Part shown: positions 20,701 to 28,128 of the stretch, one piece after another
How the letters are laid out: every line of letters starts with the position of its first letter
Position numbering within the stretch: the first letter of the stretch is position 1
Assembly: GCA_965248195.1 (NCBI GenBank)
Contig: CBDFIQ010000002.1
Span: forward strand, 1,248,001-1,312,000
DNA: 64,000 nt
Source of the DNA: Longimicrobiales bacterium
GTDB taxonomy: Bacteria; Gemmatimonadota; Gemmatimonadetes; Longimicrobiales; Gaopeijiaceae
Reading direction: 5' to 3'
Translations under genes and position numbers: made by a program
The notes under the pieces: generated by a model
What the model was told of the DNA's origin: nothing
Database searches by the model: none
The model's input: the letters and a program-made list of their open reading frames with translations, nothing else

Positions 20701-21121
20701 CCTCCGTGCGTGTGAGGAGGGACGAGAGGCGAAGGGTGGGCCGGCCGCGTTCACTCTGGAGATGCGCCTCGCTCAGGAGCCGGCAGAGGTTGGCGTAACC
20801 AGCCGGGGTTTCGGCGAGGAGGGTCATGTGGCAGCCCCGGGCGAGTGGGTCTCCATCCACGCCCAATCCGTCCACGCCCTCGGGGATCCCCGGAATGTCC
20901 AGAGCCACTGTGACCTCGGCACCGGTGATGGGCTGGAGTCCTTCGGCGCGGGCTGCCTGGGCGAATTCCATGGATCCGTACAAGCCGTTGTGATCCGTGA
21001 GCGCCATGGCCGGATAGCCCAGCTCGAGGGCCCGAAAAACCAACTCCTCCGGATGAGAGGCTCCATCCAGGAAGGAGAAGCCGGAGTGACAGTGGAGCTC
21101 GATGTAGGGAGGCGTAGACAC
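17732..21121 (-). CDS. dnaE2: Error-prone DNA polymerase DnaE2/ImuC (C family)
   Basis: ELHCHSGFSFLDGAS.PEEL, GRGSSVSS, PDIDLDF, PRHISQHVGG, QWDKDSC, FQVESRAQ, FGFPKSHA, NNQPMGFY, RQRPSTANG, short C-terminal ...KNFG tail. Confidence 0.96.
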   Translation of the reverse strand: MSTPPYIELHCHSGFSFLDGASHPEELVFRALELGYPAMALTDHNGLYGSMEFAQAARAEGLQPITGAEVTVALDIPGIPEGVDGLGVDGDPLARGCHMTLLAETPAGYANLCRLLSEAHLQSERGRPTLRLSSLLTRTEGLIILTGCRRGPLSRALEDSVATAEFLARRLYTAFGPRGLFVELQDNEQKGDGYRNRSLGRLADRLGIPVVATGNVHYHHPQRHRLQDVLVSIRNRTTLNGSHEQRRANARFYLAAPEEMAHRFRSRPDATAHTLEIAERCAAFDLTQDLGYSFPDFEGSDRGGAIENLAAVCLRKLDERYRDSKLEAEARERLHQELGLVDRHGLAGFFLVYRDIMELARDVAAEIRGGAPRAHAGLPPGRGRGSSVSSIICYLIGLSHVDPVKTNLFLGRFLNEAMQSVPDIDLDFPRDIREQLILRVYERYGAEHTGLVCTFPTYRLKSTLREIGKALDLPMGDLEKLSKLAERRSGGGLMEELERLPEFREKAGSPLWQALCELADDIKGLPRHISQHVGGMIISSRPLVEIVPLEPAAWEGRVLCQWDKDSCDDAGFIKIDFLALGMLSLVEEAVDLISERHGQAPDLSRIDFADETLYEHICTGDTIGMFQVESRAQIQMLRRVQPRNLEDLAIQVAIVRPGPIVGGAVNPYVRRRELLRENPNFRVPYDHPLLEEALGETLGVIIFQDQVLQVCQALAGFSDGQAESLRRSMSRKRSKEAMDDHWEAFRDGSRARGVDETTAQKVFQQVTAFSEFGFPKSHAVAFGLLAYQSAWLRYYHGTEYYVALFNNQPMGFYSLDALGRDARRHGIGTRLPDVNRSRVKCTPEESDLRIGLGFVRGWGAEIAERVVEERERHGRFVSLSDFLRRTPASLKRPAIENLIWVGGFECFGLTRRELLWQAGLWLGPEEDSERSGGRDDHPQTELGLEDPYARIRFSDLDDSERMVAEYHMLRFSTDLHPLSLLRDELPAETVTGDRFLNLPNHSTVTVAGIVVARQRPSTANGFVFVLMEDESGPINVIVKPKIYEKCRTTVRMEPFLVVRGRLQKDGLTTNVIAHTVKAVRVREAEQPEALHPALPGTLEHWAEPERSPRAPFRYLTALRQSPPGVKNFG

Positions 21122-21180
21122 GATATTCGGTGTTTGTTCGGGTTAGAACGAATTATAGATCGGAAATCGGTGGGATGCAA
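21121..21180 (-). promoter_or_regulatory. dnaE2 promoter (TTGCAT-N17-TATAAT) with candidate SOS operator AACCCGAA-CAAACA-CCGAATATCG
   Basis: -35 at 21180-21175 and -10 at 21157-21152. The operator (21144-21121) abuts the GTG start and is 21/24 identical to the site at 28094-28117. Confidence 0.75.
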
Positions 21181-21321
21181 CGAGAGGGCGGCGGCTCCTA
21201 CAGGATGCTGCTCCACGAGAGATGGGGCTGGTTGTTCCCCTCGACGTGTGCCGTAGGCTAGGTTTCCGGTCATGAGGACCCGCCGACTCACGGGGACATA
21301 CCAACCGTTAGGTGCATATTC

Positions 21322-21729
21322 ATGGACATCAGCGTTGGAGACCGAGCAACCCGCAGCTTGACGCTCACCGCCGAGCACGTGGAGCAATTCGCGCAACTCA
21401 GCGGCGACCGCAATCCCCTTCATTTCGACGAGGGCTTCGCCGCGGCCACGCCGTTTCGCCGGCTCGTCGTTCAGGGCGGGCTCACGACCGGTCTCCTGCA
21501 CGCGCTGGTGGCCATGGACTTACCTGGACCGGGAACCGTCTTCATGAACCAACAATGGAAGTTCACGGCGCCGGTCTTCATCGATGACACGATCACCGCC
21601 GAGGCCGAGGTCTTGAGCAAGCACGCCACGAAGCCGGTCACGACTTTGGGGATCACCGTCCGCCGCCAAGACGGAGAGACGGTGCTGGAGGGAGAGGCGG
21701 TGTGCTACACGTTCTCCGGATCCCAGTGA
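21322..21729 (+). CDS. MaoC family (R)-hydratase/dehydratase
   Basis: FAQLSGDRNPLHFD, PGPGTVFMNQ..KFTAPVFI.DTI. Confidence 0.93.
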   Translation: MDISVGDRATRSLTLTAEHVEQFAQLSGDRNPLHFDEGFAAATPFRRLVVQGGLTTGLLHALVAMDLPGPGTVFMNQQWKFTAPVFIDDTITAEAEVLSKHATKPVTTLGITVRRQDGETVLEGEAVCYTFSGSQ

Positions 21730-22490
21730 ACACGGGCGGTCGGCGAATCGCGGTCAGCCTGGCGCTTCTTGGAAGCCTTTTTGCACCCCTCCCTTCACAC
21801 GCTCAGAGCCCTCGCGAGATCATCGACCAAGTGGACCGGCTCATGAGAGGCGAGGCGAGCATCGCCCGTTTCACGATGGACATTCGAACGGAGAACTGGG
21901 ACCGCTCCCTGACATTACGCGCCTGGTCTCTCGGCACCGAGCACGCCCTCATTCGGGTCGAGACGCCGCAGAGAGAGGCTGGGACGGCCACCCTCCGGGC
22001 CAATCAGGAGGTCTGGAACTACCTGCCTCGTGTAGACCGAACCATCAAGGTGCCGTCCTCGATGATGATGGGTTCGTGGATGGGCTCGCACTTCACCAAT
22101 GACGATCTCGTGAAGGAAAGCCGCCTGGTCGACGACTACGAGATCGAAATCACGTTCGAAGGTGAGAGAGACGGGGCGGAGGTTTGGGAGTTCGTTCTCG
22201 TGCCGTTGCCCGAGGCTCCGGTCGTCTGGGGAGGGATCCGTTACCAGGTCAGGAAGGAAGATTTCATGCCGACTTGGGCGCGATACTACGACGAGTCGGA
22301 TGAAATCGTGCGGACCATGGTCTTCAGCGAAATTCGTCTCATGGGCTCGCGGTTGGTGCCGACCGTCATGACGATGGAGCCCGCCGACAAGCCGGGGGAG
22401 ACGACGGTGGTGCGCTACCACGAGCTCGACTTCGACGTCGATCTCGACGAGGACTACTTCTCGCTTCGGAATCTGCGTCGCGAGAGATAG
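21726..22490 (+). CDS. LolA-like outer-membrane lipoprotein-sorting protein
   Basis: Signal peptide (SHA-Q); P.REAGTATL....VWNYLPRV.RTIKV..SMM.GSWMGSHFTNDDL; GTGA overlap with maoC. Confidence 0.85.
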   Translation: MNTGGRRIAVSLALLGSLFAPLPSHAQSPREIIDQVDRLMRGEASIARFTMDIRTENWDRSLTLRAWSLGTEHALIRVETPQREAGTATLRANQEVWNYLPRVDRTIKVPSSMMMGSWMGSHFTNDDLVKESRLVDDYEIEITFEGERDGAEVWEFVLVPLPEAPVVWGGIRYQVRKEDFMPTWARYYDESDEIVRTMVFSEIRLMGSRLVPTVMTMEPADKPGETTVVRYHELDFDVDLDEDYFSLRNLRRER

Positions 22491-22493
22491 GTA

Positions 22494-27015: not shown

Positions 27016-27059
27016 TCGGTGCGTCGTGCGGGCTCACACGCGTAGGCGAATCAGAACCC

Positions 27060-27764
27060 TCAGGTCGGCGCGTCTCTCTGTTCCACGGCTTGCCTCGCGC
27101 CGGTCTCGGCTTCCTCGATCCCGACGCGGATGACATCTGATCCGAATCCGCGGCGGCTCAAGAATGCGTGGAGGCGTTGGCGGGCCCGCTCGCGTTCCCT
27201 CGACCGGTCTGTGCCGGCCAGGCTCTCGGTCAGGGTTGGGCCTTGGCGAGCAAGCCAACCGCGAGCGGCCGCGCAAGCCAAGGCTCGCTCCGACGTGTCT
27301 TCGCTGCTGAATGCCTGGTCGATGACCTGTTCCGCCACTTCGGCGGACACGCCCTTTTGGCGCAACTCCTGGGCCAAACGGAAACGTCCTCTCGGCCTGA
27401 GTCGGATCCGGCTGCGCACGAAGGCCGACGCGAAGGCATGGTCATCGATGAGCCCCTGTTCCTCGAGAAGGCGGAGGCACCACTCAACGAGCGCGTGCGG
27501 AAAGCCCTTGGAAAGGAGGCGACGCCGAAGCTCCTGCTCGGCTCTCGGTCTGTACGAGAGAAGATGAAGGGCGGCCTGGCGAACACGCCACTTGGCATCG
27601 TCTTCCTGCAGTTGCGCGAGATCCTTCGTGGTCACGTCGTCTCCGACGTGGATGCCTGAACGCTCCATGACGTCCAGGGCGAGCTCGATGGGCTCGGTGC
27701 CCGCCAGATGCACGAGGACTTGGTTCTTCTTGCGCGGCGCGAGTTGGATGCGGAGGACTCTCAC
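27060..27764 (-). CDS. recX: Regulatory protein RecX
   Basis: AALHLLSYRPRAEQELRRRL..KG, L.EQGLIDD..FA, RG..RL.QELRQKGV, FLSRRGF. GTG start overlaps the stop of the upstream small ORF. Confidence 0.93.
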   Translation of the reverse strand: MRVLRIQLAPRKKNQVLVHLAGTEPIELALDVMERSGIHVGDDVTTKDLAQLQEDDAKWRVRQAALHLLSYRPRAEQELRRRLLSKGFPHALVEWCLRLLEEQGLIDDHAFASAFVRSRIRLRPRGRFRLAQELRQKGVSAEVAEQVIDQAFSSEDTSERALACAAARGWLARQGPTLTESLAGTDRSRERERARQRLHAFLSRRGFGSDVIRVGIEEAETGARQAVEQRDAPT

Positions 27765-28081
27765 TGCACGTACCACCCTCCGGCCACGAGGTCCCGAAAG
27801 AGGATGACCGGCCGGCCGTCTTCCAGAACCAGGGCGTAGTACTCTCTGGAAATCGGATCGCGCCACCATTCATCGTCGATCCTCCAGCGCTCTCGAACCG
27901 CCAATACCCGGAGTCGCTTTCCTTTTTGATGAAGCTCGGCCGGCAAGCCTTCGTCGTCGATGCGAACTCGGACCGGGGAAGGGGACTTCAAGGGCCGCAG
28001 CCTCTGCGGCTGGAGGCTAGTGCGCCCGTGTCCGGCGCGGTTCGCTAGGGGAGTGCTGGGTTTCATGAGAATCGGGTTCAT
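27761..28081 (-). CDS. Small protein resembling the ImuB C-terminal (DUF6504-like) domain
   Basis: LRPL..P.PV.V, V..VRERWRIDDEWWRDPISREYY.L.LEDG....LFRDL..G.WY. True start may be further downstream. Confidence 0.78.
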   Translation of the reverse strand: MNPILMKPSTPLANRAGHGRTSLQPQRLRPLKSPSPVRVRIDDEGLPAELHQKGKRLRVLAVRERWRIDDEWWRDPISREYYALVLEDGRPVILFRDLVAGGWYVQ

Positions 28082-28093
28082 AGGCCAGAAAGG

Positions 28094-28128
28094 AACCCGA
28101 AGATAAACCGAATATCGGGGCGACGCAA
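28094..28128 (-). promoter_or_regulatory. Promoter TTGCGT-N17-TATCTT overlapped by the second candidate SOS operator
   Basis: -35 at 28128-28123 and -10 at 28105-28100. The operator AACCCGAA-GATAAA-CCGAATATCG (28094-28117, + strand) covers the -10 and spacer. Confidence 0.75.

Follow-up and report, generated by a model that had tools for sequence, protein, structure and literature searches.

A TTCGG-N6-TTCGG direct repeat as the predicted LexA operator of SOS and error-prone-repair genes in the class Gemmatimonadetes

A motif bound by LexA in the Patescibacteria was reportedly described by Sanchez-Osuna, Barbe and Erill in 2017. This motif is cited among direct-repeat LexA motifs in an excerpt of PMC7739468, which also gives the direct repeat TTACACATATTTTWTACATA for the Balneolaeota LexA, with binding confirmed by EMSA, and a regulon built around lexA, recA and the translesion polymerases. 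The alphaproteobacterial LexA box is GTTC-N7-GTTC (PMC8565304 and PMC3323433, both in part). With respect to gene content, an imuY-imuB-C-dnaE2 cassette occurs in Deinococcus and Kyrpidia and is under RecA/LexA control in Deinococcus, according to excerpts of PMC8072749 and PMC6511836. For the Gemmatimonadota, no SOS box was found in the literature searched.

The window, i.e. the whole stretch of 64,000 nt analysed here from a Longimicrobiales bacterium, contains two boxes of the form TTCGG-N6-TTCGG, one at dnaE2 and one at an operon of a small imuB-C-like gene and recX (Table 1). Judging from sequence comparison, this repeat is very likely the operator of a cleavable LexA, LexA1, which would repress lexA, recA and the error-prone-repair genes until DNA damage occurs.

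Table 1. Positions of genes, predicted promoters and boxes within the window.
Feature	Positions	Strand	Remarks
dnaE2 (imuC), error-prone DNA polymerase, 1129 aa	17732..21121	-	PRK05672, 951.5 bits (cut-off 939); Pfam domains
Box A	21126..21141	-	in dnaE2 sense orientation CCGAA-N6-CCGAA; located between -10 and start codon
Predicted sigma-70-type promoter of dnaE2	21152..21180	-	TTGCAT (21180)-N17-TATAAT (21157); similar words in congeners
recX	27060..27764	-	three Pfam RecX domains, RecX_HTH1-3; ORF extends to 27869
ImuB-C-like stand-alone protein (106 aa when read from ATG 28081)	27761..28081	-	homology to ImuB-type C-termini
Box B	28097..28112	+	TTCGG-N6-TTCGG when read on the strand of its genes; overlies promoter spacer and -10 of imuB-C/recX; exact in 10/10 genus-level loci
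Predicted promoter of imuB-C/recX	28100..28128	-	TTGCGT (28128)-N17-TATCTT (28105); kept in congeners

The gene identities given in the preliminary description hold for dnaE2 (PRK05672), recX (Pfam) and the ImuB-C-like gene (homology). The last of these is left unnamed by Pfam and NCBIfam searches, with DUF6504 as a weak hit (E 0.055), and its Atlas matches (0.92-0.93) are either unnamed clusters or 12% DUF6504. It matches, at E 2e-11 to 2e-7, the C-termini of ORFs of 429-596 aa, which in four relatives come after RecA-like (imuA) ORFs. The better-conserved ATG at 28066 may be its true start, and recX likely begins at GTG 27764, overlapping the stop codon of the small gene. Sigma70-like promoters had been claimed at both boxes, and their sequence words are confirmed, the promoters and start sites being predictions; box A begins 10 nt past the dnaE2 -10. 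A consensus promoter scanner lists neither promoter, because their -35 words match TTGACA at only three of six positions. An Rfam search over the window returned one tRNA and nothing else.

In this genome, imuB-C is located 6.6 kb from dnaE2 and about 77 kb from imuY, while a protein-level comparison places imuY directly before imuB-C and recX in three other genera. Deinococcus and Kyrpidia have the same set, made up of a Y-family accessory protein, an ImuB-C that stands alone, and DnaE2. As far as the excerpts of the sources describe, those bacteria carry it in one cassette, whereas in this genus ImuY, ImuB-C and DnaE2 are distributed over three loci with one box each, and imuB-C is coupled to recX. 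Since each locus has its own box, the three genes would remain co-induced with each other and with recA and recX.

Boxes A and B form 24-mers that are identical at 21 of 24 positions, and recomputation confirmed that the mismatches (positions 9, 11 and 13) all fall within the spacer. An exact-core search of the window yielded these two sites only, in line with the earlier statement that no further full copy is present, and the box orientations relative to their own genes are indeed opposite. Across the whole genome, the extended 24-nt pattern occurs twice only. The preliminary description had also considered that the motif might be common genome-wide. Sites of at least 20 bits in a scan with a position weight matrix (PWM) are rare, with 16 in the genome compared to 1-2 in each of three shuffled genomes, and none of 400 random upstream windows reaches at least 19 bits. 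Box B is the highest-scoring site of the genome (31.9 bits). A further scan for the motif at lexA and recA revealed two boxes in the lexA1 promoter, in the arrangement TTGCAT-[box]-G-TACTCT-TTG-[box], and one box with one mismatch in the recA promoter.

Orthologous promoters of relatives preserve the motif. An exact box is present within 130 nt of lexA in 27 of the best 30 loci, this genome included, and at dnaE2 in 25 of the 27 scorable orthologue loci. At recA, 22 of 30 loci contain a box with at most one mismatch, compared to 0-4 for the control spacers 4, 5, 7 and 8; exact boxes are limited to 2 of the 30 loci, and 8 have none. The same wrong spacers rarely match at dnaE2 promoters. Boxes also precede the imuA-imuB operons in three of four more distant relatives. 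Among 201 genomes of the phylum, the tandem box was found in 126 of the 182 belonging to the class Gemmatimonadetes (one positive, G212, is unpublished) and in none of the 19 from other classes; the reversed-pattern control gave 0/201. A phylum-wide motif was therefore dropped as a claim, and the other Gemmatimonadota classes sampled carry TTCGC-N6-TTCGC instead. The exact tandem pattern is missing from 56 of the 182 class genomes; five of these were checked, of which three had two boxes and two had one. In a GTDB scan, 103 of 119 tandem-box loci were titled Gemmatimonadota, with lexA adjoining the box in 99 of them, while none of the 15 loci from other named lineages has lexA beside it. RNA sequencing runs contained 0-14% of the words, as assembled contigs only.

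The reading of the repeat as the SOS box of this lineage is thus supported by lexA, recA and the conservation, but it is not unique to the lineage, as Patescibacteria-type lexA promoters share it. These carry TTCGG-N6-TTCG[G/C/T] in the promoter spacer; their assignment derives from taxon names of protein clusters (a Ca. Shapirobacteria LexA cluster), the contigs themselves bearing no names. In close relatives of P0227 the box is TTCGG-N6-TTCG[C/T]; AT-rich loci at a greater distance have the exact TTCGG-N6-TTCGG. The likeness extends to the direct repeat before lexA and, in Shapirobacteria-related loci, the same VHEH helix. In Patescibacteria, a different phylum, most lexA promoters carry a single box, whose last base is often relaxed, whereas Gemmatimonadetes have two exact tandem boxes. 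The published Patescibacteria motif is probably the same as TTCGG-N6-TTCGG or nearly so. Given the near-identical box in these promoters and a published direct-repeat motif, the box sequence itself is probably not new. The alphaproteobacterial box shares the direct repeat, the 11-bp period and the TTC core, but it has a G before TTC, whereas here this base is free (0.23 and 0.03 bits in the PWM) and GG follows TTC. Neither box A (ATTC-N7-GTTC) nor box B (ATTC-N7-CTTC) has G before TTC in both half-sites. The recognition helix differs as well, with KSKSGIHRL at one alphaproteobacterial locus versus SSLATVHEHL here. The Balneolaeota operator is likewise a direct repeat, with half-site letters that differ from TTCGG.

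This genome encodes both RecA and a cleavable LexA. LexA1 passes TIGR00498, and its Ala-Gly cleavage site and Ser/Lys dyad are intact; a LexA homologue search returned close relatives only. Positions 40 and 44 of LexA1 align to N41 and E45 of E. coli LexA, which contact bases according to excerpts of PMC11442139 and bioRxiv 10.1101/2020.07.14.201889. For a comparison of residues and bases, 178 lexA promoters were scored. Of 88 promoters paired with Glu44, 72 are G-rich and none is C-rich (7 tied, 9 without a TTCG-N7-TTCG box), while the 65 with Lys44 comprise 33 C-rich, one G-rich and 31 without such a box. In other Gemmatimonadota classes and in Acidobacteriota, Lys replaces Glu at the base-reading position and the box is TTCGC. 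Further helix variants have 11-bp repeats of their own, namely TTCAC or TTACA with Asn40 and TTACG with Gly40. Across related bacteria, the box letters thus appear to covary with the DNA-reading residues of LexA. The link between residue and base amounts to two changes on a quick tree, where one independent pair has support (p = 1 in a sign test), so the correlation does not constitute statistically independent evidence. A second LexA-like protein, LexA2, occurs across the order; its winged-helix domain is intact and has Glu at the corresponding place in the helix. A palindrome of Gram-positive type that precedes lexA2 (GAACAGGTGTTT) was rejected as a conserved operator, because only 5 of 21 loci have it and all five belong to the genus.

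Several other explanations of the repeat were weighed. A chance likeness of boxes A and B has a next to negligible probability, even though two simple counts are compatible with it. Two or more exact cores arise in 5 of 200 window shuffles, so the pair by itself is only modestly unusual, and the bare 16-mer shows no genome-wide enrichment (32 copies versus 14-48 for spacers 0-15), so that raw 16-mer counts were discarded as evidence. Copies with an AT-rich spacer are most numerous at N6 (13, versus 0-8 for spacers 3-10). Chance is ruled out by the retention of the box in orthologous lexA, recA and dnaE2 promoters, together with the phylum tandem-box count and the negative spacer and reversed-pattern controls. 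LexA2, acting alone or in a mixed dimer, might be the binder in view of its order-wide presence, winged helix and Glu. This is improbable, since none of the 21 lexA2 promoters has a box, even with one mismatch allowed, and the same box family precedes lexA1-type genes of other phyla. Moreover, the LexA2 of this genome is without Ala-Gly, Ser and Lys, and therefore could not be inactivated by self-cleavage.

An unrelated damage-response repressor or activator, with lexA as one of its targets, is about equally improbable. For a LexA dimer, with its two-fold symmetry, direct repeats are an unusual target (excerpt of PMC7739468), and SOS-independent regulators are known in other phyla (excerpt of PMC8072749). 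Against such a regulator, the box letters shift along with residues in the helix of the LexA encoded next to them, and the sites at lexA and dnaE2 loci, whichever way they are oriented, overlie the promoter spacer, the -10 or else the start region, as suits a repressor. The repeat is still less likely to be, instead of an operator, a promoter element recognised by RNA polymerase or by an alternative sigma factor. The box exactly fills the -35/-10 spacer at many loci, but it occurs in both orientations, at some dnaE2 promoters with one box in each, and also downstream of the -10, as in dnaE2 of the genus and the second lexA box.

In the favoured explanation, with LexA1 as the repressor, one LexA1 dimer would span a pair of half-sites spaced at one helical turn (11 bp) and block RNA polymerase. 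DNA damage would trigger RecA-dependent self-cleavage of LexA1 and derepress the boxed genes. Glu44 (E. coli Glu45) is suggested to recognise the C that pairs with the G of the fifth position, and a Lys in its place would recognise G. More broadly, there is a slightly better than even chance that the LexA operators of Gemmatimonadota, Acidobacteriota and Patescibacteria belong to a single family of direct repeats with an 11-bp period and a readable recognition code. In this code, E. coli position 45 would specify the fifth base (Glu/Gln for TTCGG, Lys/Arg for TTCGC) and position 41 the inner bases (Ala for TTCG, Asn for TTCAC or TTACA, Gly for TTACG). If so, a single Glu-to-Lys swap would shift LexA1 from the Gemmatimonadetes to the Acidobacteriota box, and helix sequences could predict the SOS regulons of uncultured lineages. 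The analysis provides a predicted SOS operator and first regulon (lexA, recA, recX, imuY, imuB-C and dnaE2) for an abundant, little-studied class. An additional LexA box was to be expected; of greater use is the series of naturally occurring helix variants paired with matching half-sites. Such matched pairs of protein and DNA could be used to study the recognition of head-to-tail repeats by a symmetric LexA dimer and the drift of an operator code.

An SOS box before uvrA and ruvAB is common across SOS regulons, though not universal. Boxes at uvrA and ruv genes had been expected, yet this genome has none: the genome-wide PWM scan gave no site of at least 14 bits around uvrA, ruvC or ruvB. An upstream check likewise found no box before uvrA, uvrB, ruvB, ruvC, recG, mutS, uvrC, recQ, gyrB, mfd and uvrD; its genes were located via short motifs, of which 7 of 18 gave no gene, and the starts of some ORFs were doubtful, the PWM scan being the firmer negative. 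The top PWM sites are situated at imuB-C/recX, imuY, recA, dnaE2, lexA, an alkA-like gene, two DinB-family genes and gyrA. The sites at gyrA, the alkA-like gene and the DinB-family genes are lineage-restricted, and a site at mraZ is possible.

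The preliminary description proposed that dnaE2 and the imuB-C/recX operon share an SOS operator, and its observations are reproduced by sequence comparison. The 24-mers at the two genes are identical at 21 of 24 positions with mismatches confined to the spacer, and the exact core CCGAA-N6-CCGAA occurs in the window only in these two places, as box A at dnaE2 and box B at imuB-C/recX. The well-spaced sigma70-like promoters are likewise predicted: box A lies 10 nt downstream of TTGCAT-N17-TATAAT and ends 4 nt ahead of the dnaE2 start codon, and box B overlaps the spacer and -10 of TTGCGT-N17-TATCTT. 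The extended 24-mer pattern occurs twice in the whole 4.86-Mb genome. By itself, the pair is weak evidence, because two or more cores arose in 5 of 200 window shuffles and the genome count of the N6 16-mer is not above the counts at other spacings.

The proposal that TTCGG-N6-TTCGG is the SOS box of this lineage is supported by sites at lexA, recA and dnaE2 and by their conservation, and the repeat is a well-supported candidate for the LexA operator of the class Gemmatimonadetes. The source genome, G000, encodes two LexA-like proteins. LexA1, whose named homologues come from Gemmatimonadetes (93%) and Longimicrobiales (80-81%), has an intact Ala-Gly site and Ser/Lys dyad. By these homologues, G000 would belong to the class Gemmatimonadetes and probably to the order Longimicrobiales. 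Sites expected upstream of lexA and recA are present: the lexA1 promoter contains two boxes, one occupying the spacer of the predicted TTGCAT-N17-TACTCT and the other downstream of the -10, while recA carries TTCGC-N6-TTCGG immediately upstream of its predicted -10. Those expected at uvrA and the ruv genes were not found, as uvrA, ruvC, ruvB, recG, mutS, uvrC and gyrB are without a site in G000. Except for these optional uvrA/ruv sites, the box appears to share every feature checked with known LexA operators.

A position weight matrix (PWM) was trained on 105 distinct sites from relatives, with half-sites fixed by the training pattern, so that flanks and spacer alone could vary. It detects 16 sites of at least 20 bits in the genome and 1-2 in each of three shuffled genomes; high-scoring sites are thus not common genome-wide. 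They are located at imuB-C/recX, imuY, recA, dnaE2, lexA, an HhH-GPD (alkA-like) gene, two DinB-family genes, gyrA, mraZ, a macro-domain gene, which we take to be DarG-like, and a dispersed repeat, five copies of which have a site at this level. A score of 19 bits was reached by none of 400 random upstream windows of G000.

Coordinates of boxes, genes and repeats (C1 and C2, contigs of G000; L, loci compared)
Feature	Position	Strand	Remarks
Box A core	window 21126-21141	minus	exact CCGAA-N6-CCGAA
Box B core	window 28097-28112	plus	exact core
DnaE2 ORF	window 17732-21121		PRK05672 match above cut-off
RecX ORF	window 27060-27869		Pfam match
Serpin gene (bacterial)	window 16311-17696		convergent with dnaE2
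ImuY-like Y-family gene	C2:1353271-1354806		~77 kb from imuB-C; own exact box
lexA2, conserved second LexA-like gene	C2:1324409-1325140		L002; further loci L261-L280
Box at mraZ, which heads the division cluster	C2:1160804		L259; one mismatch, 5' of -35
Box at gyrA	C1:888475		L260; exact
Box at macro-domain gene	C1:1485428		L255; exact, ~100 nt upstream
Dispersed repeat carrying the box, six copies	C2:1340172, 1344378, 1758992, 1766715, 3177606, 1110224		L251-L254; ~100-170 bp
tRNA array	C1:1071378-1073597		17 genes in 2.2 kb

The 106-aa gene ahead of recX gave no match above threshold in family searches. It resembles the C-terminal end of ORFs of 429-596 aa located after RecA-like genes in four relatives, which fits the stand-alone ImuB-C that PMC6511836 and PMC8072749 describe. 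Examination at the protein level places imuB-C directly after an ImuY-like gene and ahead of recX in the three other genera covered.

As the preliminary description anticipated, the motif is kept in orthologous promoters, in counts that express conservation and are not p-values, because kin are not independent. An exact box lies within 130 nt upstream of lexA in 27 of the best-scoring 30 loci out of 61 genomes, G000 counted. At dnaE2 an exact box is present in 25/27, three of 30 loci being left out for a missing 5' end. At recA, 22/30 loci have at most one mismatch (exact in 2), and control spacers of 4, 5, 7 and 8 give 4, 0, 3 and 0 matches. The imuB-C gene has an exact box in 10/30 loci, all from the genus of G000; among the remaining 20, 12 have a box somewhere in the 1.5 kb upstream, in 11 cases at 1.3-1.5 kb, the expected place of an imuY start. 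PWM scores of at least 16 are found at gyrA (16/28 loci, 2 dropped), mraZ (18/30), the alkA-like gene (10/24, 1 dropped, confined to the genus) and one DinB-family gene (3/4, 2 dropped). The tandem box is present in 126 of 201 phylum genomes, namely 126/182 of the class (one, G212, unpublished) and 0/19 of the other classes, and a reversed-pattern control in 0/201. A GTDB-wide scan gave at least 119 loci; among those listed, 103 are titled Gemmatimonadota, 99 of which adjoin lexA, one without label also adjoins lexA, and 15 come from other lineages, none with lexA. In eight dnaE2 loci (L203, L207, L209-L213, L216) the -10 falls inside the box with the ATG within a few bases downstream, which suggests leaderless transcripts.

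Most likely, LexA1 dimers would occupy the two half-sites, 11 bp apart, at the promoter or just downstream. Damage-activated RecA would trigger LexA1 self-cleavage, and the scattered imuY, imuB-C/recX and dnaE2 units would be derepressed jointly with recA and lexA. We infer binding, repression and induction from the established LexA/RecA pathway. LexA2 is a candidate non-cleavable regulator, judging from its sequence. The G000 protein lacks all of Ala-Gly, Ser and Lys; most f1 and f3 family loci have lost them, but the three f2 loci retain them. Its recognition helix, KSTKTVSEHL, is near-invariant. The box is found at 0/21 lexA2 promoters, and family f1 has a strong predicted promoter, TTGAC-N17/18-TAGGAT, without it.

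The alphaproteobacterial GTTC-N7-GTTC has the period and TTC core in common with the box, yet is a different one. GTTC-N7-GTTC is reportedly also the LexA box of Acidobacterium capsulatum; it occurs in exact form in 0/32 Acidobacteriota lexA promoters scored. The open-access literature searched yielded no SOS box for Gemmatimonadota; motif tables in supplements could bear on novelty. The suggestion that the box is unique to the lineage does not hold, as Patescibacteria-type lexA promoters contain TTCGG-N6-TTCG[G/C/T]. Since relatives of a Ca. Shapirobacteria LexA cluster combine this pattern with an identical helix, the published Patescibacteria direct repeat, as referred to in PMC7739468, is probably the same sequence.

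At lexA promoters, recognition helix and box were compared within the order, in the other classes and in Acidobacteriota, and also among metagenome loci retrieved with a Patescibacteria-type LexA as query; 178 of 183 loci were scorable (one row is the unpublished G280). With Glu44, the fifth base is G in 72 loci, C in 0 and tied in 7, and 9 have no box. With Lys44 it is C in 33 and G in 1, with 31 lacking a box. Arg44 (4 loci) goes with C and Gln44 (3 loci) with G, and 18 loci have other residues. Lys and a C-rich box co-occur in 12/15 loci of the other Gemmatimonadota classes, and TTCGG accompanies Glu in one Acidobacteriota genome. At position 40, Asn accompanies TTCAC or TTACA repeats in 4/7 Asn/Lys loci and Gly accompanies TTACG in 5/7. 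By alignment, positions 40 and 44 are N41 and E45 of E. coli LexA, which contact bases, and E45K abolishes recA-box binding, as stated in parts of PMC11442139 and bioRxiv 10.1101/2020.07.14.201889. On the opposite strand, general recognition rules would have Glu read C and Lys read G. The residue-base correlation is nearly perfect, yet few evolutionary events lie behind it. A quick tree built from 53 hand-picked proteins shows just two changes of the residue and two of the base, with only one supported independent pair (p = 1); a single clade of Glu/Gln proteins is rejected (AU p = 0.003).

Several further observations were made. In the other classes (L317-L329, L331, L336), Lys44 LexA occurs with TTCGC-N6-TTCGC, a candidate second SOS box within Gemmatimonadota. 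Acidobacteriota lexA loci (L287-L316, L342-L361) display 11-bp-period repeats of TTCGC, TTCAC, TTACA, TTACG and TTCTC, each paired with its own LexA helix variant. LexA-like representatives of 380-840 aa are numerous (P0147, P0152, P0160, P0164, P0221 and similar); a member of one such cluster is named DNA methyltransferase of Ca. Paceibacterota, which suggests LexA-methyltransferase fusions in Patescibacteria. IS elements are very numerous in G000, with dozens of near-identical copies per family. Several copies of the dispersed repeat are close to a tRNA gene or an IS cluster, and at tRNA-Gly one copy sits 5' of a tyrosine-integrase fragment. A part of 50-70 bp, without the box, recurs at dozens of places and includes a promoter-like TTGCGC-N17-GATGTT pointing at cargo genes. 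The dispersed repeats are possibly the ends of SOS-controlled islands or cassettes.
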